From the IMG/VR virus record IMGVR_UViG_2667527787_000008: DNA of 42,793 nt, one strand, 5' to 3'. Below are positions 6,263-42,462 of this stretch, piece by piece. The stretch is from a virus (lineage: Duplodnaviria; Heunggongvirae; Uroviricota; Caudoviricetes). Position 1 is the first letter of the stretch. The number at the start of each line of letters is the position of its first letter. The notes beneath the pieces are model-generated. The model saw only the letters and a program-made list of their open reading frames with translations. It was not told the DNA's origin and searched no databases. A program made the translations under genes and the position numbers.

Positions 6263-6519
6263 GATGTTCTCCACTATTGCTGAGTGAACTTCGCTGGTGG
6301 TGCCGTGACGCTGATCTTCACAGTTGAGCGTTTTAACTCTGCAATTCACCACCGCGAAGCTCACTTCTGTGTTTGCCCTTGTCGCCAGGCTGGCGGAACG
6401 TTTCAAACCTACTGCGCGTTAATATCACCACCTCATTCCGGTTTTCGTATGCCCCGGACGGCTACTTCGTGGGCTCCATGCCTGGGTGGTTCGTGGTGCG
6501 TCTTGGTGAGTTAGATTAA

Positions 6520-6580
6520 ATCACTGGTTTATATATGTGTCAACTTAAGGTTAGTGTTAATTGTAAATCTGAGGTTTATG
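6520..6580. promoter_or_regulatory. Putative leftward operator/promoter region (oL-like) with GGTTTAT repeats
   Basis: Motif TAAATCTGaGGTTTA at about 6564-6578 recurs in the repressor/cro intergenic region; second GGTTTAT at about 6526-6532. Confidence 0.3.
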
Positions 6581-6617
6581 TGGCTGGGTTTTGTGACACG
6601 TCTGCAGAATCGCAGGC

Positions 6618-6645
6618 AAAAAAAATCCCGACGCGTGGTCGGGAT
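6618..6645 (-). terminator. Rho-independent terminator closing the repressor-linked operon
   Basis: 7 bp GC-rich stem (TCCCGAC / GTCGGGA) with 5 nt loop, followed on the minus strand by a run of 8 U. Confidence 0.55.
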
Positions 6646-6717
6646 GAGAAGGTTCGGGGAAGGCGACAGAGTTAGTAGCTGAGAGCCTTATAACTCAGGC
6701 GTATTGACCAAATCTGA

Positions 6718-7239
6718 CTAAAAGAAGTGCATAAAAGCTTTGTACAGCCCTGTACCAATGGCGATAATCGCAGGGACACCTAAGAGAATCGCCAATTTAG
6801 CATCAGAGATTTTCTTGTCCACTGTGTCTGATGAGGGCTTTTTGTCTACAGACTCTTTGATACTAGACAGCCTCTCCAAAACTACAGCCATATTTTTGTC
6901 CAGTGAATTCACTGTCGTATCAACTTTTGAAACTGTGTTTTTTATCTCGGCAACATCTTTCTTGATGTGGGCAACTTCAACCTCAAGAATAGCCAATCTC
7001 TTTTCCATGTCGTCACCTCCATCTTCAGTTGACGTATGAATGATTTCAGTATCATCCATAGCAACTGATGTGACAATCCGTTTTTGTTTATCCGAAGCGG
7101 CAAAACTACAAGCACCCATAAGGAAGGTTGCTTGGCTCGAAGCTACTGATGAAAACTCTAAGCCTACTGTAGCTCCGCTATGGTCTGAATATGCAATCAA
7201 TAACTTCCCTTCACCAAGAGATGATTGAGCCGCATCCAT
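6718..7239 (-). CDS. Tail-anchored coiled-coil membrane protein (173 aa), candidate exclusion/abortive-infection effector
   Basis: ATG at 7239; central heptad-like region (EKRLAILEVEVAHIKKDVAEIKNTV...), C-terminal hydrophobic helix LAILLGVPAIIAIGTGLY; low GC; follows the 93 aa gene after a double TAA stop. Confidence 0.5.
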   Translation of the reverse strand: MDAAQSSLGEGKLLIAYSDHSGATVGLEFSSVASSQATFLMGACSFAASDKQKRIVTSVAMDDTEIIHTSTEDGGDDMEKRLAILEVEVAHIKKDVAEIKNTVSKVDTTVNSLDKNMAVVLERLSSIKESVDKKPSSDTVDKKISDAKLAILLGVPAIIAIGTGLYKAFMHFF

Positions 7240-7245
7240 CAATTA

Positions 7246-7527
7246 TTATTCCTCAAACATACTTTTTAAGGATTGATAAAAATCATAAGCCTTTTGTTTG
7301 CTTAAAGTCACAGACACAACTTTGGTTCGCTGCATGCCCTTGACGACTATATCCGCATTATCCGTACCGATGATCGGGCTGCTATTCAGGAACACAAAAT
7401 TGTAAACTTCGTAACCGGCATTTTGTGTGCCGATTGTTACGACACCGTCAGCATTGGTCTCGATGAAATTTTTCGCTTCGATTACATCATTAAGATGCAT
7501 AAGTTCGACGGTTGTTTCTTTAGACAC
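7246..7527 (-). CDS. Hypothetical 93 aa protein, first gene of the repressor-linked cassette
   Basis: GTG start with GGAGGA ribosome-binding site 64 nt downstream of the repressor stop; same strand; low GC; no recognisable motif. Confidence 0.5.
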   Translation of the reverse strand: MSKETTVELMHLNDVIEAKNFIETNADGVVTIGTQNAGYEVYNFVFLNSSPIIGTDNADIVVKGMQRTKVVSVTLSKQKAYDFYQSLKSMFEE

Positions 7528-7591
7528 CGAATCCTCCAGAAGATATTAAATCTTGAAATATTTTTATTACATGGAATTAGATACTACTGGT

Positions 7592-7981
7592 TTAGGTTTG
7601 CTCACCTTGCGATCGAATCCGACCCTTCATGTACTTCTCGTACAGCTCATCTAACTCTTTCAGGCGAAGCGCAAAAATGCGGAGCATGTTCTGCTGCTCT
7701 TCTTCCGGTAACTGGCGGTAGAGCTCGAGCAAACGCTGTTCGTCCGGTTTGAGACCGTCTTTCTCCCCAACGTCTTCACCGAGTAGCCAGGCGACAGAAA
7801 TACCAACAGCGTCGGCTATGGCCAGTGCCGATTTCTTACTAATCACGCCTTTTTTGAACCAGCCGTTTACGGCCTGAGGGGTGACTCCAGCTATTCTTGC
7901 CATGTCTGCTTTGGTAACGCCGCGATCAGTGATCTCAGTAAGGCGCTCCACCAGAACGAGGTTGGGTTCTTCTTTTCTCAT
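7592..7981 (-). CDS. Prophage repressor, DicA-like Cro/C1-type HTH protein (129 aa)
   Basis: HTH segment TKADMARIAGVTPQAVNGW; C-terminal LLELYRQLPEEEQ... resembles DicA; the ORF-track N-terminal extension to 8251 is rejected; divergent from the cro-like gene. Confidence 0.7.
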   Translation of the reverse strand: MRKEEPNLVLVERLTEITDRGVTKADMARIAGVTPQAVNGWFKKGVISKKSALAIADAVGISVAWLLGEDVGEKDGLKPDEQRLLELYRQLPEEEQQNMLRIFALRLKELDELYEKYMKGRIRSQGEQT

Positions 7982-7994
7982 ATGGTCATTGTAA

Positions 7995-8058
7995 ATATTT
8001 GGTTTATGCACGCAATAAATCCAAAGTTTGCATGAAGTATAAATCTGTGGTTTACTTC
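7995..8058. promoter_or_regulatory. Putative oR-like operator/divergent promoter region
   Basis: Intergenic region between divergent repressor and cro-like genes; GGTTTAT at about 8001-8007 and TAAATCTGtGGTTTA at about 8040-8054, shared with oL. Confidence 0.35.
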
Positions 8059-8083
8059 TGCTATCAATAAGCAGGAGAAGCAC

Positions 8084-8302
8084 ATGTCCGCACTCGATAA
8101 AGCAATTAAAGCCGCTGGCTCTGCCAGAAAGCTCAGCATCGCGCTTGGTGTGACGAGTATGTCTGTAAGTCATTGGAAGAATCGTGACCAAGGGATCGTC
8201 CCGCCAAGCTATATCTTCCCGATTTTCAAAATGACAGGCGTAACCCCCCACGAGCTGCGCCCTGATCTCTATCCAAATCCCACTGACGGATTACCAAAGT
8301 AG
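8084..8302 (+). CDS. Cro-like HTH regulator (YdaS/DicC-type)
   Basis: 72 aa; AGGAGA ribosome-binding site; motif KLSIALGVTSMSVSHWKNRD; divergent from the repressor. Confidence 0.6.
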   Translation: MSALDKAIKAAGSARKLSIALGVTSMSVSHWKNRDQGIVPPSYIFPIFKMTGVTPHELRPDLYPNPTDGLPK

Positions 8303-8313
8303 GAGCACTGACA

Positions 8314-8871
8314 ATGCAAACACTTTCTTTTCAACAGAATAACAGAGCGCCATCAGAGCACCTGAAATTCCAGTATCAACACAGTGAGGCTGAAGGCCAG
8401 CCGGTCGATCACCGGGCTATCTGTTCTGCCGTCCGCGCCTGGGCGGCGGCAGAGGGCCGCGTGGCGGTCGCTCTGGCGATTAAAGAGGCTGCCGAACAGG
8501 CCGAGCTTGACAGCATTGACATGACCGGCAGCGCCGATGTGTGGAACGTGAAGCTGTTTCGCTGGCTGGACAACCACGAGAAATCACCGGCCTACCGGGC
8601 GAACGTCGAGCAGCTGGCGCCGGTAATAATTTCGGTTCTGCCGCTGGCGTACCGGGATCGCGTGATTAAGCACGACTGCTTTGCGGTTCGTGTCGCCAGG
8701 TCGGTGAAAGAAGACGCTGAGGCGATACAGGCTGTCGTCCTCAAAGCCCCCAGACACGAACGGATGAAGGAAATCAGCGAGAGCATCGTAGCCAAGCTCT
8801 ACCTGGACGGACCTGATTCTGTGGCGCCCATTATGGCGATGGTTACAACGATGCTGGGTGGTGCGCTATGA
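8314..8871 (+). CDS. Putative CII-analog / YdaT-like early regulatory protein
   Basis: 185 aa ORF directly after the cro-like gene; assignment by position and weak resemblance only. Confidence 0.35.
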   Translation: MQTLSFQQNNRAPSEHLKFQYQHSEAEGQPVDHRAICSAVRAWAAAEGRVAVALAIKEAAEQAELDSIDMTGSADVWNVKLFRWLDNHEKSPAYRANVEQLAPVIISVLPLAYRDRVIKHDCFAVRVARSVKEDAEAIQAVVLKAPRHERMKEISESIVAKLYLDGPDSVAPIMAMVTTMLGGAL

Positions 8872-9015
8872 CGGGCTCAGAAATGGCGAAAGCCGCGGTG
8901 CTCGAACACCAACGGCTTTCAGGTGCAAAAACTGTGCGTAATTGCGGAGAACAGTATGTCAAATACCGCTGAAATATTCAAATTCCCCACACAGCAGGGG
9001 AAACAGGAGAGCAGC

Positions 9016-9867
9016 ATGGCTGAACTGGAGAAAGGCTATTTGCGCCTGGCCAACCAGATTCAGGATGCCCTGTGTATCGTCGAACTATCCGGGCGCGAGT
9101 TCCGGGTGCTGAATGCTATCGTTCGTCTGACCTATGGCTGGTCTAAGAGTTCTGACCGCATCGCCAATAGCCTCATTGCAGATAAAACGACGCTGAAGGT
9201 GAAACACGTCTCTGAAGCCGTGTTGAGCCTTGCCTATCGGAACATCATCATCCTGCGCCGCATTGGGCAAACCAGATACATAGGGATTAATACCAGCCTG
9301 GATAAATGGGCGTATACCAAGCCAAATTGCATGAAGTGTCCAGCGGTGTTTCCTGCTGCTGAAGTTGTCACATGGGTTATTACCATCCCTGAATTCAGGG
9401 ATAGCAATTTTACCCCTTCAATCATCCCTGAAAACGGGGATAACCATCCCCAAAAACAGGGAGAGGTATCCCTGAAAACAGGGAACACCAAAGACATTCT
9501 TCCAAATACAAATATAAATACAGATCTAACCCCCTCTAATCCCCCAAAGGGGAAGGGTAAGTTTGACCCGCTGACGATTCCCGTTCCTGAGTGGCTTGAT
9601 TCTGTGTCCTGGAGTGAGTGGGTGGCCTACCGCCAACAGTCTGGCAAAGCCATCAAGACCGAAATGACGGTCACCAAAGCATTCAAGTTGCTCAAGGCTT
9701 GCCTGGACGCTGGGCATGACCCCGTTGATGTGATCAACACCAGTATCGCCAACGGGTACCAGGGACTGTTTAAACCGAAGTTCGCTCTCAACGCTCGCAA
9801 AACGGGCAGGGATGTGAACCGCATTTCTGAGCCAGACAAAACAATCCCACCCGGATTCAGGGGGTAA
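9016..9867 (+). CDS. Replication initiator, lambda O-like (replisome organiser)
   Basis: N-terminal motif LANQIQDALCIVELSGREFRVLNAIVRLTYGWSK typical of the phage O N-terminal domain; iterons inside the coding region; start at 9016 chosen for the AGGAGA ribosome-binding site (track ORF opens at 8923). Confidence 0.7.
   Translation: MAELEKGYLRLANQIQDALCIVELSGREFRVLNAIVRLTYGWSKSSDRIANSLIADKTTLKVKHVSEAVLSLAYRNIIILRRIGQTRYIGINTSLDKWAYTKPNCMKCPAVFPAAEVVTWVITIPEFRDSNFTPSIIPENGDNHPQKQGEVSLKTGNTKDILPNTNINTDLTPSNPPKGKGKFDPLTIPVPEWLDSVSWSEWVAYRQQSGKAIKTEMTVTKAFKLLKACLDAGHDPVDVINTSIANGYQGLFKPKFALNARKTGRDVNRISEPDKTIPPGFRG
9385..9484. repeat. Origin of replication iterons (four 17-18 bp palindromic repeats) inside the O-like gene
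   Basis: ATCCCTGAATTCAGGGAT, ATCCCTGAAAACGGGGAT, ATCCCCAAAAACAGGGAG, ATCCCTGAAAACAGGGA spaced 39/22/22 bp, followed by an AT-rich stretch at about 9490-9530; resembles ori-lambda. Confidence 0.6.
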
Positions 9868-9869
9868 GC

Positions 9870-10208
9870 ATGCCAAGACCAAATACACCAGAAGAGCAGG
9901 CGGCACTTATCCGGGTGATCATCGAAGAGGTGAAAATCCGTGGACGCTTAACCGTTAGCGAGGCATCACAGATGTTGTCGCTGCATCGTCAGACTGCTGA
10001 GAAGTATTTCCGCGTAGCAGCCGAACGCGGCGAACTCATTCGTTACGGTCGTCTAGATTTGTTCAGGGACCCAAAGGCTGTAATTGATTTCGATCTCCAA
10101 CGATTCTCATACGGTTCGAGTAAGCCTCTGATTGAGTTACCAGCAGATTTTCGGGGAAGTGCGGTTATGCGTCGGGTTATAGATATCGTGGGGAGGATGC
10201 CAGCATGA
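9870..10208 (+). CDS. Hypothetical small HTH-like protein in the replication-partner position
   Basis: 112 aa ORF immediately after the O-like gene; possible HTH LTVSEASQMLSLHRQTAEKYF; no helicase-loader motifs. Confidence 0.4.
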   Translation: MPRPNTPEEQAALIRVIIEEVKIRGRLTVSEASQMLSLHRQTAEKYFRVAAERGELIRYGRLDLFRDPKAVIDFDLQRFSYGSSKPLIELPADFRGSAVMRRVIDIVGRMPA

Positions 10209-10399
10209 CAACCGAAAAACTGGCGTTGAATTATGACCCAGCCGATCCCGACAAGATGCGATTACCGGCTGGCATAACATGTGGTAATTGCCACCATATC
10301 CATCGTTGTAAAGCAATTTTTGGACACACGGAGTCGAACACATATTGCGATTGGTCACCGTCGCGATTTACTGCTGGCATTGGCGTGAAGGGGGTGTGA
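10205..10399 (+). CDS. Hypothetical Cys-rich small protein
   Basis: 64 aa, start overlaps the upstream stop; CGNCHHIHRC...C pattern. Confidence 0.35.
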   Translation: MTTEKLALNYDPADPDKMRLPAGITCGNCHHIHRCKAIFGHTESNTYCDWSPSRFTAGIGVKGV

Positions 10400-10403
10400 G
10401 TCA

Positions 10404-10604
10404 GTGGAAAAATGTAATCGCTGTATAGTCGGCCTGATTGGGTCGCAGCCAGTTCTTTCCAGTGACTGGGCTAATGCGGTCGTAAATTTTGAAATCGTAA
10501 TTGCTGACTGGAACGAGAAAACCAAACGCTTTGCCGTTCCGCATCCTGGATTCGCCCATAAGTTCAATTACTGCCCGCATTGCGGAAACAAGGTAGAGGA
10601 CTAA
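10404..10604 (+). CDS. Hypothetical zinc-ribbon small protein
   Basis: 66 aa, GTG start; CNRC ... CPHC pairs. Confidence 0.35.
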   Translation: MEKCNRCIVGLIGSQPVLSSDWANAVVNFEIVIADWNEKTKRFAVPHPGFAHKFNYCPHCGNKVED

Positions 10605-10607
10605 CCC

Positions 10608-11165
10608 ATGACAACTAACAACCACCCGGCGCACGGTCCTGTATCACTTGATCGCTTGCACCAGATACGCGAAATACTCAGCAAAGCAGCAGCACAAAGC
10701 GACGGCGGTAATCTCGGCTACGCAATGGCTGATGCAGTGAAGGTGATTGATGGGGTTCTGGAGTCGATAGCCCGTGAGCAGGTACGCTGTGAACATGCAG
10801 CATGGTCAGATGAAACATTCGGCGATGTCGGTCCAGTTGGTCCGCTGAAGCACCTTTCCAAAGAAGCTATCGAGGCTGCTGCGGAACCAGACGAGATGAG
10901 CGAATGGGCTGACATGCAATTCCTGTTATGGGATGCGCAACGTCGTGCCGGTATCAGTGATAAGCAGATTACCCTGGCGATGGTAGAAAAGCTGGCGGTT
11001 AACAAAAACCGCCAGTGGCCAGAGCCGAAAGACGGTGAACCGCGACTGCATATCAAAGCGCAGTCAGAATCGGTGCTTCCTGGAATTGAATGCGATATCT
11101 GCGGACATGTATCTACTGACCCAGAGGGACGGCACTACTACTGCGAGGATAACAGTAATGATTGA
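10608..11165 (+). CDS. DUF550-like protein (dATP/dGTP pyrophosphohydrolase-type domain) with C-terminal Cys cluster
   Basis: 185 aa; motif HLSKEAIEAAAEPDEMSEWADMQFLLWDAQRRAGIS...NKNRQWPEP resembles the DUF550 nucleotide pyrophosphohydrolase domain common in prophage nin regions. Confidence 0.5.
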   Translation: MTTNNHPAHGPVSLDRLHQIREILSKAAAQSDGGNLGYAMADAVKVIDGVLESIAREQVRCEHAAWSDETFGDVGPVGPLKHLSKEAIEAAAEPDEMSEWADMQFLLWDAQRRAGISDKQITLAMVEKLAVNKNRQWPEPKDGEPRLHIKAQSESVLPGIECDICGHVSTDPEGRHYYCEDNSND

Positions 11166-11337
11166 TAAATACCGTTTGGAGAATATGCGACGCGAAAGCG
11201 GCGAAAAGGGAGAACTCGGGACATGCCGTTTGAAGGTGACATGCATAATGCCCTAGTCGATGCGAAACATCAGGCTATGTATGTCTCAGCCATCTGGAAG
11301 CTGCTAATCATCACCCCAGATAACAGCGAGGCATAAC

Positions 11338-11539
11338 ATGACTGAGCAACCTGATGATCTCCTCACTCCGGGCGAGGTATGCCAGAAGCTGGGAATTACG
11401 CAAAAAACATTATGTAAATGGAATACAGAACACCGACACCGGTCTACATTGGCCCCGTGTAAAGTTCAGCGCTAAGATTGTTCGCTATGAGCGCCGTAGC
11501 ATAGAAGCTTTTATCCAGAAATGCCGGAGCCAATATTGA
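11338..11539 (+). pseudogene. AlpA-like HTH regulator split by an apparent +1 frameshift (pseudogene or sequencing error)
   Basis: Frame 1 from ATG about 11338: MTEQPDDLLTPGEVCQKLGITQKTLCKW... stops at about 11475; frame 2 (track ORF 11354..11539) carries the matching C-terminus GLHWPRVKFSAKIVRYERRSIEAFI. Confidence 0.35.
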
Positions 11540-11579
11540 TCTAATGTGGGGCTATTGTTTTTTAACAAATGCCCCTCAT

Positions 11580-11960
11580 TTAACTTTTTTGTGTGTTAAG
11601 TCCAATTCTGACTCCACACATAAAATCACCAATACCTGCGCCAACACTGTTCCCATCAGCAACATAATCACCTTTGAAAGCTAATTTCCCATCCATATAG
11701 AAGAATCTTATCTCCCCATATCCACTATCACAGTCGGCATCTTTAATACTAACTTTGTAGTACTCTACTTTTTTATTTTTTGTTTGATACATGAACAAGG
11801 CAGATGAATCACCTTTTACATTTCTAAATGTGCCTTTTTTTGCTGAAAAAATGCCATCATCAGCTGTAGTAACCTCAACCCAGTTACTTGTCGTTTCAGC
11901 AAAAGCAACACTTGCAACAAAAAGAGCAGAAAAGCCCAGTAATGCGATTTTCTTAGCCAT
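11580..11960 (-). CDS. Secreted (Sec signal peptide) small protein, low-GC moron
   Basis: ATG at 11960; signal peptide MAKKIALLGFSALFVASVAFA then mature domain of about 105 aa with 2 Cys; AT-rich codon usage. Confidence 0.55.
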   Translation of the reverse strand: MAKKIALLGFSALFVASVAFAETTSNWVEVTTADDGIFSAKKGTFRNVKGDSSALFMYQTKNKKVEYYKVSIKDADCDSGYGEIRFFYMDGKLAFKGDYVADGNSVGAGIGDFMCGVRIGLNTQKS

Positions 11961-12090
11961 AAACAATATTCCATTTATTTAGGATTTTTCTTGATTCTAT
12001 CTGTGTTTTAAATAACGTTCAACTACACACCGCATGCCTTCTTAAATGGGCATGGAGAGCCATTCAACCCCGTAGCTTTAGCAACGCAAC

Positions 12091-12273
12091 TTGCGCGAGA
12101 ATGTTCCGCTTTTAAGTCGCAGCGAGACAAGACTCATGAGTAACATAAAGTTAACCCGCTACGTCGGTTTTTCACTCTCTATTGTATATGCTATTTTTTA
12201 TGCAATAAGAGCGATTCGTAGGACTCTTCTGGGGAAGGTATGGATTCAACAATCGACGAAGAAAAACGCATAG
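12091..12273 (+). CDS. Possible small hydrophobic peptide ORF
   Basis: Internal ATG at about 12136 gives a 45 aa peptide with one predicted TM helix (YVGFSLSIVYAIFYAI); weak ribosome-binding site. Confidence 0.2.
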   Translation: MRENVPLLSRSETRLMSNIKLTRYVGFSLSIVYAIFYAIRAIRRTLLGKVWIQQSTKKNA

Positions 12274-12437
12274 AATTTGAAAAATTCATCATTGAAAGGT
12301 TTGGTGATGCAGTTAATCTCCGCAGAGCGAAAAATGGCGGTAATGGATATATATCATGGGAGGCGGCTGTCGCATGGATTGTCTGGAGGGAGCGCTCATC
12401 CCATCATGAAGCAACGCCTACCTCTGACGGGAACTGA
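12240..12437 (+). CDS. Hypothetical small protein, low-GC island
   Basis: 65 aa ORF MDSTIDEEKRIEFEKFIIERFGDAVNLRR..., protein-like composition. Confidence 0.3.
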   Translation: MDSTIDEEKRIEFEKFIIERFGDAVNLRRAKNGGNGYISWEAAVAWIVWRERSSHHEATPTSDGN

Positions 12438-12621
12438 ATTAGTATGGTGCTGCCCGGAGCATCCTGTCATTCACTATGTACTCCCGCTTAGCCACGTCAT
12501 TTTAGATTTGATTTTGGTCCACCATGAGCGAGAAGCGGACCTAGAGAGGCGTTGGTACCGCGAACATGGTCACAGCAAAGCCAGAGCTATTTGGTTGCTC
12601 CGAACAGAATATTTTAGTTAG
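12409..12621 (+). CDS. Hypothetical small protein (overlaps the previous ORF in another frame; possible frameshifted single gene)
   Basis: ATG at about 12409 within track ORF 12277..12621; MKQRLPLTGTELVWCCPEHPV... Confidence 0.2.
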   Translation, partial: KQRLPLTGTELVWCCPEHPVIHYVLPLSHVILDLILVHHEREADLERRWYREHGHSKARAIWLLRTEYFS

Positions 12622-12660
12622 GGCTCGGAACGAGACTGTCGTGAAAACCTTATGTCTCTT

Positions 12661-13224
12661 CTATCCTGCATCTTCTTCGACATTGTATTTTCGTTGCTCA
12701 ATATCCCATGGAAGCGCAGGTTGTTTGCGAACTAGTTTTCTTTTGCCGTTTGAGAAAAAATAAGTTCTGAGTTCTAAAAAATGGCGGCGTTTTTTCGTTT
12801 GAGGCTCATAGGTGATAAGAAAAAAAATCAAAGGCCTGCTTGCTTCACTCCATATTCTACTTGCTTTTTCAATAACAATATTGATGTTTTCATGCTGACA
12901 ATATGAGATGAATGTGGAGAAATAGCACTTGTCGTTTTTTTCAAGCAGTTTGTCTAACTCGTTAACGCTATCTCTGTCTGCCTGATTATACTCCCACTCA
13001 ACATAGGTTAAAATTTGATTGTCTGGATATTGTAGGACCGCATCGGTACGCCCGCCTTGTTCAAAAAATGTTCTTGCGCCCATTAACTTTGCACACTCGC
13101 GCATGACCAGGCCAACATGAATGGTCCAGTTGGAACGGTTGATATATTCACCTTTGAACACAGGGAAATCTTGATACCACACACAATTAAACAGACAGAT
13201 AAAATCGCGCTCTACTCGCTTCAA
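12661..13224 (-). CDS. Hypothetical 187 aa protein, low-GC moron (TTG start; internal ATG alternative)
   Basis: Long ORF in an AT-rich island between the replication/nin genes and dinI-like gene; no recognisable family. Confidence 0.4.
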   Translation of the reverse strand: MKRVERDFICLFNCVWYQDFPVFKGEYINRSNWTIHVGLVMRECAKLMGARTFFEQGGRTDAVLQYPDNQILTYVEWEYNQADRDSVNELDKLLEKNDKCYFSTFISYCQHENINIVIEKASRIWSEASRPLIFFLITYEPQTKKRRHFLELRTYFFSNGKRKLVRKQPALPWDIEQRKYNVEEDAG

Positions 13225-13456
13225 CGCCTCCCCCCCATTTTTTCAATAGATGATTTTTAAACTGATAAGCAATATCTCATATCGGCTATTTGTTACTAGA
13301 CTTTAGGATTTTAATATCTGTGTTCCGATTAATGTGCTTCAGGTTGTTAATTCGGATTGATTTCACCTCTTATCACTTATCCATAGCTGATTTATCTACC
13401 ATGAAGTGAACAAAGCCCACTCACAGCACTAACCACTCCTTTGCTGATTGAAAAAG

Positions 13457-13570
13457 ATGAATGCAAGTTGGATAACGCTTTGCCTCATGGTCATACAGGT
13501 GCTCATTGATGATGCGATACAGAGGGCGAATCTCTCGGGATTGTGCCGGCAGAAAGAAATTGCCGCTTAA
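13457..13570 (+). CDS. Candidate small membrane peptide (37 aa)
   Basis: Hand-translated MNASWITLCLMVIQVLIDDAIQRANLSGLCRQKEIAA with one hydrophobic helix; intrinsic terminator 17 nt downstream. Confidence 0.3.
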   Translation: MNASWITLCLMVIQVLIDDAIQRANLSGLCRQKEIAA

Positions 13571-34261: not shown

Positions 34262-35332
34262 ATGACTATTAACTGGAATCGCCATTTTGAACTGCGGCTT
34301 CTGAACGACAAGGGGAATGGCATATCCCTGTCGGACTTTAAAGTTACCTTCGCAATCGACTGGTTTAACTCGATGTGGCCACGTGTGGCGACGCTTAAAA
34401 TTTACAACCTCAAGCGTGACACAATCACCCGGATTACGGGGGATGAGTTTTCTCGCATTACCATCATAGCCGGTTATAACGGCCTGGCGCCGACGGTTAC
34501 TGAAAGCGAGGTTGGGCAGGTTACCGAGATTTCATCTGAGCAAACCGGCCAGACGCGCGGGCAAAATTACGGAGTCATTTTTGATGGGGAGATTCGTTTT
34601 ACGATAACCGGGCGCGATAATCCTACCGATATTTTTACGCTAATTCAGTCGGTAGATGGTCATAAGGCGTTCAACGAAGCCGTATCGTCCGGCAGCCTGG
34701 CGGCAGGATATAAGCTTGCCGACGTGCATACACTTCTGATGAAGGACTTTTCGCCTTACGGCATCACCCAGGGCATCACCGGGCAGTTCCCTGACAGGGT
34801 GATGCCACGCGGTCGCGTCTTCTTCGGCGCAACGCGCGACTACATGAGCAACCTAGCGGCGCAGTGCGAGGCTAACTGGCAATTTGTCGACGGCCAGCTG
34901 CAAATGGTGCCTGAGAATAAATATCTCCATGAAGCGATCGTGCTTAACACCAAAACTGGCCTGGTCGGTATGCCTCAGCAAACCATGGGGGCAGGCGTTA
35001 ATGTGCGCTGTCTCATTAATCCAAACATTCGGGTTAACGGGCTTATTCAGTTGAACCAGGACTCGGTGTATCGCTCGCAATTACCGAACGATGAGATCCA
35101 AAGATCACAGGCAAGGATTACTGAGGCAAATGATAATGGTAATCTTAGTACAGGCAGCGCGACGCTTGCGCAGCCCGCCAGTGTGGCAACTGATGGCGTT
35201 TACATAGTTCAGTCAATCAGCTACACCGGCGATACGAGAGGGAATCCGTGGTATATGGATCTCATGTGTATGGCCAGAGGGGCGCGTGATTTACAATCGA
35301 ATACGGCCCTACAGCGAACGGCTCCACAATGA
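34262..35332 (+). CDS. Putative baseplate hub protein
   Basis: 356 aa ORF upstream of the spike and baseplate genes (Mu P-like position). Confidence 0.5.
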   Translation: MTINWNRHFELRLLNDKGNGISLSDFKVTFAIDWFNSMWPRVATLKIYNLKRDTITRITGDEFSRITIIAGYNGLAPTVTESEVGQVTEISSEQTGQTRGQNYGVIFDGEIRFTITGRDNPTDIFTLIQSVDGHKAFNEAVSSGSLAAGYKLADVHTLLMKDFSPYGITQGITGQFPDRVMPRGRVFFGATRDYMSNLAAQCEANWQFVDGQLQMVPENKYLHEAIVLNTKTGLVGMPQQTMGAGVNVRCLINPNIRVNGLIQLNQDSVYRSQLPNDEIQRSQARITEANDNGNLSTGSATLAQPASVATDGVYIVQSISYTGDTRGNPWYMDLMCMARGARDLQSNTALQRTAPQ

Positions 35333-35685
35333 AAAAAATACTTTTTTTGGTTTCTTTAGCATTCGTCAGTTTTTCTTCTACAGCGGCAAACACCGCTTAT
35401 ATGAAGTGTGGTCCCTTTACTTTCTCAACCTCATCAAGCAACGACGGATATCCGAGGATAAACGGAGCAAAGCCTGATAGTCAGAAGGTGACATTCCTCA
35501 AAAAAGAGGGAGATTATGACAATATTAAAATGCAATGGATTGTCATGAATGAGAATTCTGGGCAGCGCTATGGTCTTGATTATATAAAACGCAATGGGAG
35601 AGGGATACTCAATGCCGAGGCCATCAGAATGAACATGAATGAACCTCGAGTGTTTGGAACTTACGACTGCGTGAAGGCTAAGTAA
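35329..35685 (+). CDS. Secreted small protein (signal peptide, 2 Cys), low-GC moron coupled to the baseplate hub gene
   Basis: ATGA overlap with the hub stop; MKKILFLVSLAFVSFSSTAA signal peptide; AT-rich relative to flanks. Confidence 0.55.
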   Translation: MKKILFLVSLAFVSFSSTAANTAYMKCGPFTFSTSSSNDGYPRINGAKPDSQKVTFLKKEGDYDNIKMQWIVMNENSGQRYGLDYIKRNGRGILNAEAIRMNMNEPRVFGTYDCVKAK

Positions 35686-35692
35686 TTTAATA

Positions 35693-35712
35693 AAGGCGCC
35701 GGAACTACCGGC
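35693..35712. terminator. Hairpin between convergent moron genes (putative bidirectional terminator)
   Basis: GCGCCGG-AACTAC-CGGCGC stem-loop; U-rich on the minus-strand side. Confidence 0.35.
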
Positions 35713-35718
35713 GCTCAG

Positions 35719-36069
35719 TTACTCGTCTTTAAAACTTATAATTTTGTACTGCTCCAGTACTTCTGAAAGCTCCTTTGATGTCAGATTTTGTATTTCGATC
35801 GTACCTTTTTCAGTGGTTACCGTTATTTTTTTTGATGATCTGGTCTGTAACCATTTTCTCGCTATCGATGCAATGGCGATACAAGCTGGTGATGATGTGA
35901 TAACGGTAATAGATATTTCGAGAATTGTGCCAATAGCGCCAGGAGAATCACCCGTTCTGACTCTTTTACTTACTACATAGTCATTAGCGGGTATGTTATC
36001 CTGGATTACAGGAAGTAACTCTTTCCAAATAGCTGGAGTAAATTTTATGGTTGTTTCTGATTTTGGCAT
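35719..36069 (-). CDS. Hypothetical antisense moron protein (116 aa) inside the baseplate operon
   Basis: ATG at 36069; AT-rich; convergent with the secreted-protein gene; no recognisable family. Confidence 0.45.
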   Translation of the reverse strand: MPKSETTIKFTPAIWKELLPVIQDNIPANDYVVSKRVRTGDSPGAIGTILEISITVITSSPACIAIASIARKWLQTRSSKKITVTTEKGTIEIQNLTSKELSEVLEQYKIISFKDE

Positions 36070-36249
36070 AAAGGTTTCAGGCCCCTATCGAGAGAAGCTA
36101 AAAATTGCCTACCGGCTTTTCCTTAGCAGCCTGTATCTTGCTACAAATCACGACGTTACCGTGGTTCTAAGCAAAACCTATATTAAGAGCTGCAATGAAG
36201 ATAAATAGCACGCATTAACTCACCCTCAAATCCTGACATTTGATCAGTA

Positions 36250-36272
36250 ACCCGCCTCGGCGGGTTTTTTAT
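36250..36272 (+). terminator. Rho-independent terminator just upstream of the baseplate spike gene
   Basis: AACCCGCC-TCG-GCGGGTT followed by TTTTTATT. Confidence 0.45.
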
Positions 36273-36287
36273 TACCTGGAGAAAGCT

Positions 36288-36941
36288 ATGCCAGTATCAG
36301 CCCGCGCGCAGGACGGCAACGAATCGCAGACTCTTGAGGCGCACCGCCACGCCATTTTCGGCAGCCTGCGCGTGGCTTTGCCGGGGATCATCCAGTCCTT
36401 TGACCCTGAAACAGTGACATGCACCGTGCAGCCAGCCATCTACGGTCAGCGGCTCAGCGACGATGGCGCTCTGGTTTCTGAGGAGATACCGATTTTGCCA
36501 GACGTTCCAGTGGTGTTCCCCCGCGGCGGTGGCTGCACGTTAACCTTCCCGGTAAAGGCCGGTGACGAGTGCCTCCTGGTCTTCTCCGATCGCTGCATCG
36601 ACTTCTGGTGGCAGAGCGGCGGGGTGCAGGAACCGGTTGACCCGCGCCAGCATGACCTGAGTGATGCGTTTGCCATTGTGGGTCCGCAGTCGCAGGCGCA
36701 GAAAATCAGCAGCATCAGTACCAGTGCGGTTGAACTGCGCAGTGACGACGGTGGAACAAAACTGAGCCTTAACCCTTCATCCGGAGCGATAACGGGAACC
36801 GCGCCGGGAGGCTTCAACCTTAACGGTCTGAAAATTCTGCCTGACGGCCGCCTGCAGCTGGTGGATGGCTCCATGGTTGATAAGCATACGCATGGCGGCG
36901 TGGAAGTCGGCGGCAGCAATACGAAACCACTGGGAGGGTAA
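36288..36941 (+). CDS. Baseplate spike / assembly protein V-like
   Basis: 217 aa from ATG with GGAGA ribosome-binding site; C-terminal HTHGGVEVGGSNT-type motif; followed by W-like and J-like genes. Confidence 0.55.
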   Translation: MPVSARAQDGNESQTLEAHRHAIFGSLRVALPGIIQSFDPETVTCTVQPAIYGQRLSDDGALVSEEIPILPDVPVVFPRGGGCTLTFPVKAGDECLLVFSDRCIDFWWQSGGVQEPVDPRQHDLSDAFAIVGPQSQAQKISSISTSAVELRSDDGGTKLSLNPSSGAITGTAPGGFNLNGLKILPDGRLQLVDGSMVDKHTHGGVEVGGSNTKPLGG

Positions 36942-39174: not shown

Positions 39175-39953
39175 TGGCTGGAACTAATGATTTTAAAGCG
39201 TTTGCGACAGATGCTAATGCAAATGTTACCTCGCAGGAGGAATGGGAGACGCTAACCGCACTGAAGAAAGGATTCTCCTCGGGTAAAGCATCCAGCGCAC
39301 AGGTCAGTAAAGCGCTGCGCCAACCGTCGACGATGGCGGCTGTACTGGGGCAGTTTATCGCGAACGCCGAACTGGACGCGCTCGATGATGGTGACGTTGA
39401 TGGACTGGTGGCAAAGCTGGCGACAGCGATTACCACAAACCTTGGTTTGGGAGAAGGCTCAGCATTACCCGTTGGCGTACCTGTTCCGTGGCCTTCAGCC
39501 ACACCGCCGACAGGCTGGCTGAAATGCAACGGTGCCGCTTTTTCTGCTGAAGAATACCCGGAACTGGCAAAGGCTTACCCGACAAATAAATTGCCTGATT
39601 TACGTGGTGAGTTTATTCGTGGCTGGGATGACGGGCGTGGAGTGGATAGCGGTCGTACTTTATTAACGAATCAAGAGCATGCAGTAATTTCTCATAATCA
39701 TGGAATACCTACAAAAGTGGGGTCAGTTACTAATATCCCGTATGGAATAGAACAGGTTATATCTGATGAAACCATTTTTTCATCAGCAAAAACAGTTGGT
39801 GTGGATTACTGGTCTAACAGTGAAAGAGTTTTTACTTATACCTCTGGTGGAAGAAATGGTGCTGAATCAGTGAGTTCACCTGATGCCTCCTCTTTAATTA
39901 AAGAAACCAGACCACGGAACCTAGCATTTGCGTATATCGTGAGGGCTGCATAA
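39174..39953 (+). CDS. Tail fibre protein (constant N-terminus plus currently expressed variable C-terminus, Sv)
   Basis: GWLKCNGAAFSAEEYPELAKAYPTNKLPDLRGEFIRGWDDGRG tail-collar-type motif; inversion crossover site at codon about 96; AT-rich 3-prime part. Confidence 0.7.
   Translation: MAGTNDFKAFATDANANVTSQEEWETLTALKKGFSSGKASSAQVSKALRQPSTMAAVLGQFIANAELDALDDGDVDGLVAKLATAITTNLGLGEGSALPVGVPVPWPSATPPTGWLKCNGAAFSAEEYPELAKAYPTNKLPDLRGEFIRGWDDGRGVDSGRTLLTNQEHAVISHNHGIPTKVGSVTNIPYGIEQVISDETIFSSAKTVGVDYWSNSERVFTYTSGGRNGAESVSSPDASSLIKETRPRNLAFAYIVRAA
39432..39457. other. Left crossover site of the invertible tail-fibre segment (gix/hix-like)
   Basis: ACCACAAACC-TT-GGTTTGGGAGAA; inner half-site repeated in inverted orientation at the right site. 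Confidence 0.5.
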
Positions 39954-40555
39954 TGGTGAAAGCAAAATTAAACAGTGCGTTTATTGCCACCGTGGCAGGT
40001 GAAATCACTGTGTACAACTACCGGGGCGACACCCGCGAATACATATCCTCATCGGTTGAGTATCTGCCTGTGGGGGTGGGTATTCCTGCCAATTCCTGTA
40101 CCGATGCGCCCGGCACACATAAAGCTGGTTATGCAATCTGCCGTTCTGCAGATTTTAACTCATGGGAATATGTGCCAGACCATCGCGGTGAAACGGTATA
40201 TAGCACTGAAACAGGAGAATCAAAAGAAATCACAGCTCCGGGTGATTACTCTGAAAATACAACTACTATCGCCCCGTTAACGCCATTCGATAAATGGGAT
40301 GGTGAGAAATGGGTGACCGATACTGAGGCACAGCATAGCGCCGCAGTAGACGTGGCAGAAGCACAGCGCCAGTCGCTGATTGATGCTGCTATGGCTTCCA
40401 TCAGTCTGATTCAGCTGAAATTGCAGGCCGGGCGGCAACTGACGCAAGCAGAAATCACTCGCCTTAACGCTGTGCTGGATTACATTGACACGGTGACGGC
40501 AACAGATACCAGCACCGCGCCGGATGTCATCTGGCCTGAACTGCCGGAGGCGTAG
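39953..40555 (+). CDS. Tail fibre assembly protein (Tfa)
   Basis: 200 aa; C-terminal motif LNAVLDYIDTVTATDTSTAPDVIWPELP typical of the tail fibre assembly family. Confidence 0.7.
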   Translation: MVKAKLNSAFIATVAGEITVYNYRGDTREYISSSVEYLPVGVGIPANSCTDAPGTHKAGYAICRSADFNSWEYVPDHRGETVYSTETGESKEITAPGDYSENTTTIAPLTPFDKWDGEKWVTDTEAQHSAAVDVAEAQRQSLIDAAMASISLIQLKLQAGRQLTQAEITRLNAVLDYIDTVTATDTSTAPDVIWPELPEA

Positions 40556-40970
40556 GCCATTCAATATCTGGAGCACTGGAGGTATCAACCAGTTCCAGTG
40601 CGTCCAGATAATCCAGCCACAAATTATATTGCGCCAGTTCCTCACTTTTCAGACGACCAATCGCCGCTTTGCCAGGCCACTGATGAGTATTGATGTAGGT
40701 ATTGACTTCAGAAACCAAAGATATTTTTTTCATTTCAGCCGTCAACACCTCATCCTCTTTTGAAGGGGGTGGGGAATTAATCCATACTGGCCGTCCTGAA
40801 CTGTCAGCGCCAATTTCTTTCCCTTCTGGATGCAGCCCAAGAAATTGCTCATATGTTTCTCTGGTAATTTCAATAACATCATCAGGAAGCGTTCCCGCAT
40901 CCTCATATTCTGGAAACAATTCTTGCAGATAAAAACTTTTACTTCCGGGTGAAAAGAATACTGAGTTCAT
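40527..40970 (-). CDS. Alternative tail fibre assembly protein (Tfa-prime) within the invertible segment
   Basis: 147 aa; C-terminal LWLDYLDALELVDTSSAPDIEWPTPP paralogous to Tfa; convergent with and overlapping tfa. Confidence 0.65.
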   Translation of the reverse strand: MNSVFFSPGSKSFYLQELFPEYEDAGTLPDDVIEITRETYEQFLGLHPEGKEIGADSSGRPVWINSPPPSKEDEVLTAEMKKISLVSEVNTYINTHQWPGKAAIGRLKSEELAQYNLWLDYLDALELVDTSSAPDIEWPTPPAVQAR

Positions 40971-40972
40971 TC

Positions 40973-41425
40973 TTACCGTCCAATGATTAATGCTGAGACG
41001 CTGGTATCTGAAGGAAAGGCTGCATTCAGTGGTTTGTCGACTTTGAACACAATCGTATTATTCCCCCTGACAGCGGCAAAAGAACAAACCGCAGTCGCGT
41101 ATGAACCTGTAATATTACTGGATACACCACCATAAGCTGTTGTTGATACCAGAGGGATAACGCCCAGCACCTTATTAGGAAATACAAAGGGCAATGTGGC
41201 TGTGGCAATATAAGACTTATTAGAACCTGTAATGGCATAAGCATTATCAGTCATTCCATTCATCGCCACCGGGCCGCTTATACTTACAGTAACCATCTGA
41301 ATGATTAGCCCGTCAGGTTGACGAATCACAAAATTTCCATTGCCACCAGTAACCGTCCAGAAAGACATATCAGGGATTTGGTTTTCCCCGTTGCCCACAT
41401 TCCGTTTTGCCGCTTCTCCCAAACC
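40973..41425 (-). CDS. Promoterless alternative tail-fibre C-terminal segment (Sv-prime)
   Basis: Begins with GLGE encoded by GGTTTGGGAGAA, the same as the current junction in the expressed fibre; Gly/Thr/Ser-rich fibre-like composition. Confidence 0.6.
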   Translation of the reverse strand, partial: GLGEAAKRNVGNGENQIPDMSFWTVTGGNGNFVIRQPDGLIIQMVTVSISGPVAMNGMTDNAYAITGSNKSYIATATLPFVFPNKVLGVIPLVSTTAYGGVSSNITGSYATAVCSFAAVRGNNTIVFKVDKPLNAAFPSDTSVSALIIGR

Positions 41426-41439
41426 AACCTTTTTTATAA
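41414..41439. other. Right crossover site of the invertible segment (gix/hix-like)
   Basis: TTCTCCCAAACC-AA-CCTTTTTTATAA resembles Hin/Gin crossover sites; about 60 bp upstream of the invertase start. Confidence 0.5.
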
Positions 41440-41498
41440 CCATCAAAAATCTGGTGATGCTTCGCCGTTTCTCCTGTTTTCATAACAGGAGAAATCCC

Positions 41499-42047
41499 AT
41501 GATTTACGGTTATGCCCGAGTATCAACAAACCACCAGGACACTGAATTGCAACTAACGGCGCTCAAGTCAGCGGGTTGTGAGAAAATTTTTGAAGAGCAT
41601 GCCAGCGGGAGGAAATCGAATCGGCCGGTTCTAAAACGGCTGATCGCCACTATGCAGCCGGGGGATGAACTGGTGGTCTGGAAGCTGGACAGGATAGGCC
41701 GCAACGTTCTGCATGCGCTGTTGATGTTCCAGCAGTTACAGGAAAAGGGTATCAACTTCCGCAGTATTACCGATGGCGTGGATCTCAAAACAGCCAGCGG
41801 CCGCTATAACTTTCGTAACATCCTTTCCGCAGCACAATATGAATCTGATCTTAATAGCGAACGTACCTTAGCAGGGCTGGCCGTAGCCAGGGCAAAAGGG
41901 CGAGTTGGTGGTCGCAGGCCTAAGTTCACGGATGAGCAATGGCGGGAAATGGGGGAGCGGATGGCAACCGGTGAATCACGACAAAGCGTATCAAAAACGT
42001 ATGGAGTAGGGCTCTCAACTCTGTATAAAAAGTTTCCAGCTAGCTGA
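41499..42047 (+). CDS. Serine DNA invertase (Pin/Gin/Hin/Cin family)
   Basis: 182 aa MIYGYARVSTNHQDTELQLTALKSAGCEKIFEEHASG... with catalytic Ser in YARVST and C-terminal HTH; adjacent to the invertible segment. Confidence 0.85.
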   Translation: MIYGYARVSTNHQDTELQLTALKSAGCEKIFEEHASGRKSNRPVLKRLIATMQPGDELVVWKLDRIGRNVLHALLMFQQLQEKGINFRSITDGVDLKTASGRYNFRNILSAAQYESDLNSERTLAGLAVARAKGRVGGRRPKFTDEQWREMGERMATGESRQSVSKTYGVGLSTLYKKFPAS

Positions 42048-42067
42048 TAACGGGAAAGAAACAGAGA

Positions 42068-42105
42068 AGGGCACAAATATTGTGTACTTTAATGTGCCCT
42101 TTAAT
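42068..42105. terminator. Putative bidirectional terminator between invertase and yciI; probable prophage right boundary region
   Basis: Stem AGGGCACA / TGTGCCCT with long loop, T-rich on both sides. Confidence 0.3.
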
Positions 42106-42165
42106 TTATTGATTGGTGGTTGAATTGTCCGTAACTTTTTGATTTAAGTGCAAATTTCTAATAAA

Positions 42166-42462
42166 TTAGAACGCTTTCTTAAATGGTTTCACTGAAACGT
42201 GTTCATAGACTCCTGCCGCTACGTACGGGTCAGCATCGGCCCAGGCCTGAGCTGCTTCCAGCGATTCAAATTCAGCAATAACGGTTGAGCCAGTAAATCC
42301 CGCAGCCCCTGGATCGTTACTGTCTACCGCTGGCATTGGACCAGCTGTCAACAAACGACCTTCATCATGCAGTAACTGTAAACGTGCTAAATGTGCCGGA
42401 CGAACGGAAAGGCGTTTTTCGAGGCTATCAGCTTTGTCTTGAGCGTAAATAACATACAACAC
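42166..42462 (-). CDS. yciI: YciI-like protein (chromosomal)
   Basis: About 98 aa from GTG with AGGAG ribosome-binding site; adjacent to and divergent from tonB as in E. coli. Confidence 0.6.

Follow-up and report, generated by a model that had tools for sequence, protein, structure and literature searches.

An EACC1 homologue paired with a small overlapping gene between the baseplate hub and spike genes of an Escherichia coli prophage

In a contractile-tailed prophage of Escherichia coli, the genes for the baseplate hub and the baseplate spike are separated by a short segment of unusual base composition, which raises the question of what this segment encodes and whether its genes belong together. 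The window, that is, the whole stretch of 42,793 nucleotides analysed here (IMG/VR record IMGVR_UViG_2667527787_000008), represents a lambdoid-type prophage of about 40 kb situated between kch and yciI/tonB. Its tail genes follow each other in the order Dit-like protein, Pam3-type plug, E217 gp41-like hub, the segment in question, spike, sheath initiator and baseplate J. The segment (positions 35329-36272) has a guanine-plus-cytosine (GC) content of 0.405 against a mean of 0.556 for the structural region, of which it is the lowest-GC stretch of 944 nucleotides; 1.8% of all 944-nucleotide stretches of the window are as low. An earlier note, made from the sequence alone, had described the segment as a single low-GC insert of about 0.9 kb, in which a secreted protein of 118 residues with two cysteines, its start codon overlapping the hub stop codon, is followed by a hairpin, a convergent gene of 116 residues on the other strand and a clean terminator. 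The low GC content, both open reading frames (ORFs), the overlap and the hairpin are found as described, and the convergent gene is real and conserved. The note had missed the family of the antisense gene and the presence of a third gene. The observations below suggest that the segment consists of two independent units: ORF A, the secreted-looking protein, and a pair of overlapping genes, ORF B and ORF C.

Judged by its sequence, ORF B is a homologue of EACC1. The EACC1 domain takes its definition from a two-gene conflict system, in which it is the constant 5' gene and a caspase-like protease is encoded by the 3' gene (Kaur et al. 2020, PMC7159879). One such protein, KrEACC1, is an autoinhibited monomer that is cut by KrAvs12, the cleavage site being modelled at Asp49 (Evans et al. 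2025, bioRxiv 10.1101/2025.11.14.688446). The C-terminal fragment left by this cut has toxic activity and makes liposomes permeable (bioRxiv 10.1101/2025.11.14.688446). ORF B matches the EACC1 family of Pfam, PF19953, and no other Pfam family, with a score of 29.1 bits (cut-off 23.6) over profile positions 26-104 of 107; 13 of the 23 representatives of the ORF B family also match PF19953. The Prokaryotic Genome Annotation Pipeline (PGAP) calls the gene "EACC1" in NZ_CP062811, which carries a prophage 98% identical to the window except in the immunity region. Aligned by BLASTP with KrEACC1, the sequence of which was taken from the supplement of bioRxiv 10.1101/2025.11.14.688446, ORF B shows 35% identity across 98 residues (E = 1e-9), and hhalign gives this pair a probability of 85% (E = 6e-6). 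The ratio of nonsynonymous to synonymous substitution rates (dN/dS) of ORF B is 0.08-0.22.

The resemblance includes the region of the modelled cleavage site. The corresponding residues of ORF B form an R-T-x-D motif (Table 1), and the GTILEI that comes just after this motif is identical in ORF B and KrEACC1. Among 24 close sequences T39 and D41 do not vary, and D41 is one of only three positions that are invariant in 12 distant relatives. In the AlphaFold2 (AF2) model of ORF B, which has a predicted local distance difference test score (pLDDT) of 70, D41 is found in a low-pLDDT loop between the N-terminal beta-alpha-beta part and the remainder of the protein. The small-residue-rich hydrophobic segment downstream of this loop contains the invariant SSPAC-AIA (in SSPACIAIASI) and fits the description of the EACC1 core given in PMC7159879. 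These observations suggest that ORF B could be a latent pore-forming effector.

The protease gene that defines the canonical system is missing from the neighborhood. In about 35 loci, the 6-8 kb around ORF B or its homologues contain no gene for a protease or sensor, and the annotation of the full prophage lists none either. The protease-free loci cover E. coli, Klebsiella, Pantoea, Citrobacter, Symbiopectobacterium, 18 IMG/VR contigs and four informative distant loci. An exhaustive HMMER search found only 26 ORF B representatives at E <= 0.001. All close relatives with a named source belong to Enterobacterales, and all close loci examined are prophages or viral contigs. The weakest ORF B matches have a large co-directional gene downstream, as in the canonical system; in L043 and L044 these downstream genes were not confirmed as caspases, since Pfam finds only TerB_N and TPR, or nothing. 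ORF C is absent from the loci that resemble the canonical EACC1 system.

ORF C occupies the supposedly non-coding 220 or so nucleotides between the start of ORF B and the spike gene, its first codons overlapping the start of ORF B on the opposite strand. Both its start codon and its ribosome-binding site fall within the opening codons of ORF B. When seven loci from five genera are compared, its start and stop codons align and the insertions and deletions are in frame. Its substitutions are distributed over the three codon positions as 250:148:500, and its dN/dS is 0.09-0.20, outside the overlap with ORF B as well. None of the minus-strand frames across the region is open. ORF C is usually better conserved than ORF B, for example 91% versus 74%. 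The pattern of substitution thus indicates that ORF C is a coding gene under purifying selection, and the conservation of positions 36070-36272 is explained by this coding function. A structured or small RNA was also considered for this interval, and Rfam contains no match at E <= 1. PGAP annotates ORF C (WP_016243572.1) only in genomes in which ORF B is not called, and vice versa, but never both; other gene callers skip the ORF C homologues of distant loci. An extended form of 71 codons has no match in NCBIfam, PADLOC or PHROGs. The hydropathy of ORF C is too low to span a membrane, and its product is predicted to be cytoplasmic.

ORF B and ORF C are tightly associated with each other. ORF C, with the same overlap, is found in every locus that has ORF B, and elsewhere both are absent together. 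In two decayed copies ORF B has been lost and ORF C is intact (ORF B is cut to 45 codons in L004 and frameshifted in L034), and the reverse was never seen. The pair persists in relatives that are only about 30% identical and occupy other phage slots. The ORF C homologues of these distant loci have the motif G-[PS]-Y-x-x-K-[LI]...A...L...N..VT, likewise overlap the start of the EACC1 gene and are left uncalled. All four of the informative distant contexts, from relatives 30-35% identical, are phage regions, and each has the EACC1-like gene on the strand opposite to the late genes. Two are in an island between the tail tube/chaperone and tape-measure genes, one is in the hub-spike slot and one is divergent from the holin/endolysin genes. 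ORF C is co-oriented with the phage late genes in every case. In L036 (4762-7438) and L039 (4433-7766), the minus-strand island between the tail tube/chaperone and tape-measure genes contains, besides the pair, an ORF6N (KilA-N-like) gene and small unknown ORFs.

The history of the pair can be compared with that of its neighbors. Between the window and L002, the proportion of synonymous differences (pS) is 0.55 for ORF B and 0.28 for ORF C, and it is saturated for the hub gene and ORF A. The identities across loci are mosaic. The lower divergence of ORF B and ORF C compared to the hub and ORF A, together with these mosaic identities, argues that the pair moves between prophages independently of ORF A. 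The two genes may therefore represent a mobile module that has entered the variable slot before the spike. The pair has been found in one GTDB species representative, in no plasmid and in no sequenced phage isolate.

The slot itself accommodates very different genes. In relatives, unrelated genes with a GC content of 0.38-0.43 fill the interval that separates the ORF A homologue from the spike gene. Phages Mulock, SEN34, YP3, vB_EcoM-683R1 (683R1), ST16-OXA48phi5.2 (ST16) and ST405-OXA48phi1.2 (ST405) all lack the ORF B-ORF C pair. In its place, Mulock has a membrane-anchored zinc-ribbon protein, SEN34 and ST16 have membrane-anchored proteins, 683R1 has a protein with an R-x4-H motif, YP3 has a protein of 266 residues, and ST405 has a minus-strand protein that combines a zinc-ribbon, a membrane part and an OB-fold. 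The slot ahead of the spike gene is a hypervariable cargo hotspot of this tail family. Thus, the variability among related tail clusters that the earlier note had anticipated for the entire insert applies to ORF B and ORF C, which are present or absent, but not to ORF A, which is kept after the hub. Further slot proteins were observed in other loci: a 170-residue protein with an R-x4-H (HEPN-like) motif and no Pfam match (L009, 3282-3794), a minus-strand protein with zinc-ribbon, membrane and tRNA_anti-like OB domains (L011, 3309-3977) and a membrane-anchored cysteine-rich protein (L006, 4280-4726). It is possible that these three are defence or exclusion genes. The hub-spike junction of this tail family is a promising place to look for defence genes.

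ORF A is an ordinary uncharacterised member of a protein family without known function (phrog_3443, E = 3e-43, positions 3-113 of 115). Its 46 homologue clusters come from Escherichia, Erwinia, Pantoea, Serratia and Salmonella, and tblastn finds it in 20 sequenced phages. The homologue directly follows the hub in all six annotations inspected, which are those of the six phages named above, and the position is also kept in Omnitron and several Klebsiella phages. The start codon of ORF A and the stop codon of the hub share the sequence ATGA (35329-35332), and this four-base overlap recurs in relatives. The N-terminus of ORF A, MKKILFLVSLAFVSFSSTA followed by AN, has recognizable n-, h- and c-regions, with S-T-A at positions -3 to -1 and a maximal 19-residue hydropathy of 1.58. 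By rule, a Lys/Arg-containing n-region, a hydrophobic core and an A-x-A-type site without a lipobox are present in ORF A and six homologues. The cysteines C27 and C114 are invariant in 43 homologues, the first being located a few residues past the A-x-A site. The AF2 model of ORF A (pLDDT 87) is a seven-strand beta protein, in which residues 1-20 are disordered and have a low pLDDT. Compared with other prophages, the proportion of nonsynonymous differences (pN) of ORF A is about 0.30 and pS is saturated, a divergence similar to that of the hub gene. Comparison of the hub, spike and ORF A types across loci gives mosaic identities with no pattern of co-variation. ORF A is missing from L012 and L033, and in L004 a gene for a lipoprotein-like protein of 240 residues takes its place.

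These properties are consistent with ORF A being a long-resident, fast-evolving and non-essential accessory protein of the late operon, which would be translated together with the hub, exported to the periplasm and disulfide-bonded there. That it acts in exclusion at the level of the envelope, or in interaction with the host, is a weak guess. A lysozyme inhibitor of the MliC/PliC type, or another known periplasmic inhibitor, was considered and rejected: BFVD contains nothing similar at E <= 0.001, and a PDB sequence search gave only chance matches to nanobodies. The gene that replaces ORF A in L004 (5193-5915, E. coli M172-1) has a sub-threshold BamD-like match (TIGR03302, 24 bits, cut-off 81). 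In two IMG/VR prophages (L021 and L023, about 4680-5290), some 600 extra bases are found between the hub and the ORF A homologue, and the junction between the hub and ORF A may thus also accept cargo.

The ends of the ORF B-ORF C unit are marked by two hairpins and a conserved box. The hairpin between ORF A and ORF B is terminator-like for ORF B only; it is kept in eight of 11 loci with different stem sequences. The terminator before the spike is present as the earlier note had it, but it belongs to the overlooked ORF C. This terminator is kept in all loci, with compensatory changes in the stem (for example, CCCGC/GCGGG is replaced by ACCGC/GCGGT). Between the ORF C stop codon and the terminator, the box CCTGACATTTGATCAGTAA is kept even in L038, where the EACC1 protein is only 34% identical. 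On the minus strand the box reads TGATCAAAT, which makes it a candidate for an extended -10 element of an ORF B promoter; an operator or RNA element would be other possible roles.

Table 1. Features of the hub-spike junction, with positions given in the numbering of the window.
Feature	Coordinates	Strand	Basis or remark
Baseplate hub gene (context)	34262..35332	+	Weak match to Pfam E217_GP41 (26.7 bits, cut-off 27), supported by synteny with Dit-like, Pam3 plug, spike and baseplate J genes
ORF A, 118 residues, predicted exported small beta-barrel, phrog_3443	35329..35685	+	Profile match, synteny, AF2 model
Sec signal peptide predicted for residues 1-19 of ORF A, with cleavage after S-T-A	35329..35385	+	Rule-based reading of the sequence
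GC-rich hairpin immediately after the stop codon of ORF B	35696..35714	-	Terminator-like on the minus strand only
ORF B, 116 residues, EACC1-like	35719..36069	-	Pfam PF19953; homology to KrEACC1; convergent with ORF A
Small-residue-rich hydrophobic segment of ORF B, residues 52-70, ISITVITSSPACIAIASIA	35860..35916	-	Hydropathy 1.83
Candidate activation site R38-T39-G40-D41 of ORF B	35947..35958	-	Aligns with R46-T47-Q48-D49 of KrEACC1
Shine-Dalgarno sequence GGAG, 8 nucleotides before the ORF C start codon	36035..36038	+	GGAG(G) or GGTGG at the same spacing in seven loci
ORF C, 53 residues	36047..36208	+	Conserved start and stop, purifying selection; overlaps the ORF B start by 23 nucleotides on the opposite strand
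19-nucleotide non-coding box CCTGACATTTGATCAGTAA, ORF C stop to terminator	36232..36250	.	Conserved in all aligned loci
Intrinsic terminator between ORF C and the spike gene	36249..36272	+	Terminator scan
Baseplate spike gene (context)	36288..36941	+	Pfam PF18352, E = 1.4e-43

These findings can be brought together in a scheme in which ORF B would be a prophage defence toxin that is silenced or neutralised during the late transcription of the prophage's own genome. In the lysogen, ORF B would be expressed from its own weak promoter and would wait as a pro-toxin, with the two terminators insulating the ORF B-ORF C unit. When another phage infects the lysogen, a protease activity would appear that cuts ORF B after D41. 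The C-terminal part of ORF B would then permeabilise the membrane and abort the infection. When the prophage itself enters the lytic cycle, late transcription would run antisense through ORF B and at the same time produce ORF C, and the two together would shut off or neutralise the toxin. This late transcription is presumably Q-antiterminated, because the 98%-identical prophage has a gene annotated as a Q-type antiterminator. Taken as a whole, including the division of the segment into two units, the scheme has, in our judgement, about an even chance of being correct. A more far-reaching version of it is more tentative and, on balance, somewhat doubtful. According to it, temperate phages would have their own form of EACC1, in which the caspase-like protease has been replaced by the 53-residue antisense partner, making up a two-gene system that has not been described. 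The trigger would be a protease of the invader or the host, or else the small protein would be the gate, and the state of the system would be tied to late transcription.

Several observations weigh against the scheme. The pair is rare, as it occurs in 13 of 5,426 complete E. coli genomes, with one copy in each. The model of ORF B, in which the elements are ordered as beta-alpha-beta, loop, beta-alpha-beta-beta-alpha-beta, has a pLDDT of only 70. No PADLOC or NCBIfam model matches ORF A, ORF B or ORF C, and no PADLOC model fits the module. The structure prediction and fold searches suggested in the earlier note produced the seven-strand model of ORF A, but no functional lead for either ORF A or ORF B. 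Neither a consensus scan nor a position weight matrix scan of seven loci found a strong or consistently placed sigma-70 promoter for ORF B or ORF C. ORF C has no similarity to Pfam, to known families and structures or to ORF B. The appearance of a beta-alpha-beta arrangement by eye had suggested that ORF C might be a free-standing copy of the N-terminal inhibitory part of ORF B, and this was rejected by hhalign (probability 0.1%). Because ORF C resembles nothing detectable, ORF B included, its role as an antidote is a conjecture. Furthermore, we know of no Asp-specific protease that is general in these hosts or phages.

The alternatives that concern ORF B and ORF C differ in what the predicted pore would be used for. 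The pair might be a toxin-antitoxin or addiction system that stabilises the prophage or serves in competition between phages, where loss of ORF C, and not the sensing of an infection, frees the pore-former. The tight pairing, the 5' ends that overlap as in type I loci and the toxin-first decay in L004 and L034 are in agreement with this proposal. In the characterised system, however, full-length EACC1 is not toxic before it is cleaved, and the strict conservation of the cleavage motif argues for a proteolytic trigger over the simple loss of an antitoxin. The consistent orientation of ORF C with the late genes suggests, in addition, a control linked to the life cycle, so that the toxin-antitoxin proposal is considered unlikely. 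It is still less probable that the pair serves the lysis or timing of the phage itself as a holin-like pore and its regulator. EACC1 does make membrane pores, and in L037 the module is directly upstream of the holin/endolysin genes with ORF C in the same orientation; but in all contexts ORF B runs against the late genes, which means that late transcription should lower its expression instead of driving it. The 98%-identical prophage already has a class II holin, a lysozyme and an Rz1-like gene, and the module is missing from most relatives. The least probable of all the alternatives, and one to which we give very little weight, is that ORF C is no gene and is conserved because the promoter or 5' untranslated region of ORF B lies there. 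Gene callers often skip ORF C and it matches no family, as would be expected in that case. Opposed to this are the excess of substitutions at third codon positions, the low dN/dS outside the overlap, the in-frame indels, the preserved start, stop and Shine-Dalgarno sequence, the conservation of amino acids where the DNA has diverged and the closed minus-strand frames.

The remaining alternatives concern ORF A and the unity of the segment. A reading along the lines of the earlier note, in which the segment is one 0.9-kb moron inserted as a unit, the payload of which is a secreted periplasmic exclusion or immunity protein and the antisense gene an unrelated passenger, derives some support from the uniformly low GC content of ORFs A, B and C (0.37-0.41), the export of ORF A by sequence criteria and the replacement or absence of ORF A in L004, L012 and L033. 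A single insert is nevertheless not what the comparison of loci indicates. ORF A is found without the pair in many phages and the pair is also found without ORF A. Between the window and L002, synonymous sites of ORF A are saturated like those of the hub, but those of ORF B and ORF C are not, and this unequal divergence implies different histories of the two units; the mosaic identities likewise suggest that the histories of A, B and C are incongruent. We therefore regard insertion as a unit as improbable. A similarly low probability is given to ORF A being a structural or assembly component of the baseplate with an uncleaved hydrophobic N-terminus. Its place between hub and spike and the overlap with the hub stop codon, both conserved across genera, would fit such a component. 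However, the homologues have n-, h- and c-regions with an A-x-A site and then a conserved pair of cysteines, as is typical of periplasmic proteins, and in the minimal Pam3 baseplate the hub and spike genes are adjacent, with nothing between them (PMC11633184). The note itself had considered that the insert might turn out to be a conserved, essential tail component; the position of ORF A is indeed conserved, but the gene is not essential, being dispensable in L004, L012 and L033. The preferred explanation thus remains an accessory ORF A next to a mobile ORF B-ORF C pair that would act in defence.

Other parts of these prophages also show signs of exchange or variation. The immunity and early region of the window (6509-13549) is wholly unlike its counterpart in NZ_CP062811, which looks like an exchange of modules. 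The tail-fibre end of the window (about 39600-42300, from L001 10574-12668) is low in GC, and its fibre assembly genes are found in both orientations beside a serine recombinase. This arrangement points to an invertible segment of the Pin/Gin type that would affect host range. In L012, a Klebsiella prophage, an RVT_1 reverse-transcriptase gene (1-180) adjoins the tail-fibre region and may belong to a diversity-generating retroelement.

Previous descriptions of EACC1 show it only in company with a caspase-like protease, as one of two paired genes, and come mainly from actinobacteria and other multicellular bacteria. What is new here is an EACC1 clade that, as far as its sequences indicate, is phage-borne and enterobacterial, keeps the cleavage motif without the protease, is placed antisense in late operons in all contexts studied and is locked to a small overlapping gene. 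If the proposed scheme is true, it raises the question of how a protease-gated pore-former is triggered without its own protease, possibly by sensing the protease of an invading phage. It would also raise the questions of how the prophage escapes its own toxin and how common overlapping antisense micro-genes are as switches of phage operons.

The classical morons of lambdoid tail regions include lambda bor and lom and HK97 gp15. The ORF B-ORF C pair is similar to these in its low GC content, its location inside or beside the tail genes, its own terminators and its variability between relatives, and one of its genes is antisense to late transcription, like bor. It differs from them in that no clear promoter was found and the cargo is a predicted protease-gated pore-former and not a surface or exclusion protein; moreover, only ORF B and ORF C of the segment are moron-like, as the position of ORF A is conserved. 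A latent pore-former that is held by a part of its own chain and freed by site-specific proteolysis, as predicted for ORF B, is also known from the bacterial gasdermin-protease systems. These are unrelated by homology, and gasdermins are larger and encoded beside their protease.

The relationship to the EACC1-caspase system is closer. ORF B has the same size as the EACC1 of that system, a small-residue hydrophobic core and an R-T-x-D motif aligned with Asp49. Unlike that EACC1, it has no caspase-like protease or sensor gene next to it, it belongs to temperate phages of Enterobacterales and not to actinobacteria or other multicellular bacteria, and it is antisense in late operons, paired with a 53-residue gene that canonical-like loci lack. 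The pair can thus be assigned by sequence to the EACC1 domain family, without the defining protease of the EACC1-caspase system and with a partner that has not been described before.

For the logic of the proposed switch, the closest tested analogue is Tha/Ith of Staphylococcus aureus phages, in which a small antisense inhibitor gene turns the prophage defence off at induction (Rostol et al. 2024, PMC11087260). The two systems have no sequence relationship. Tha is a HEPN RNase encoded in the lysogeny operon, whereas ORF B is a predicted pore-former that is antisense in the late operon, with the small gene oriented in the direction of the late genes. What they have in common is a prophage effector with a small gene on the opposite strand, an arrangement in which overlapping transcription could make the expression of the two mutually exclusive and tie it to the life cycle of the phage.

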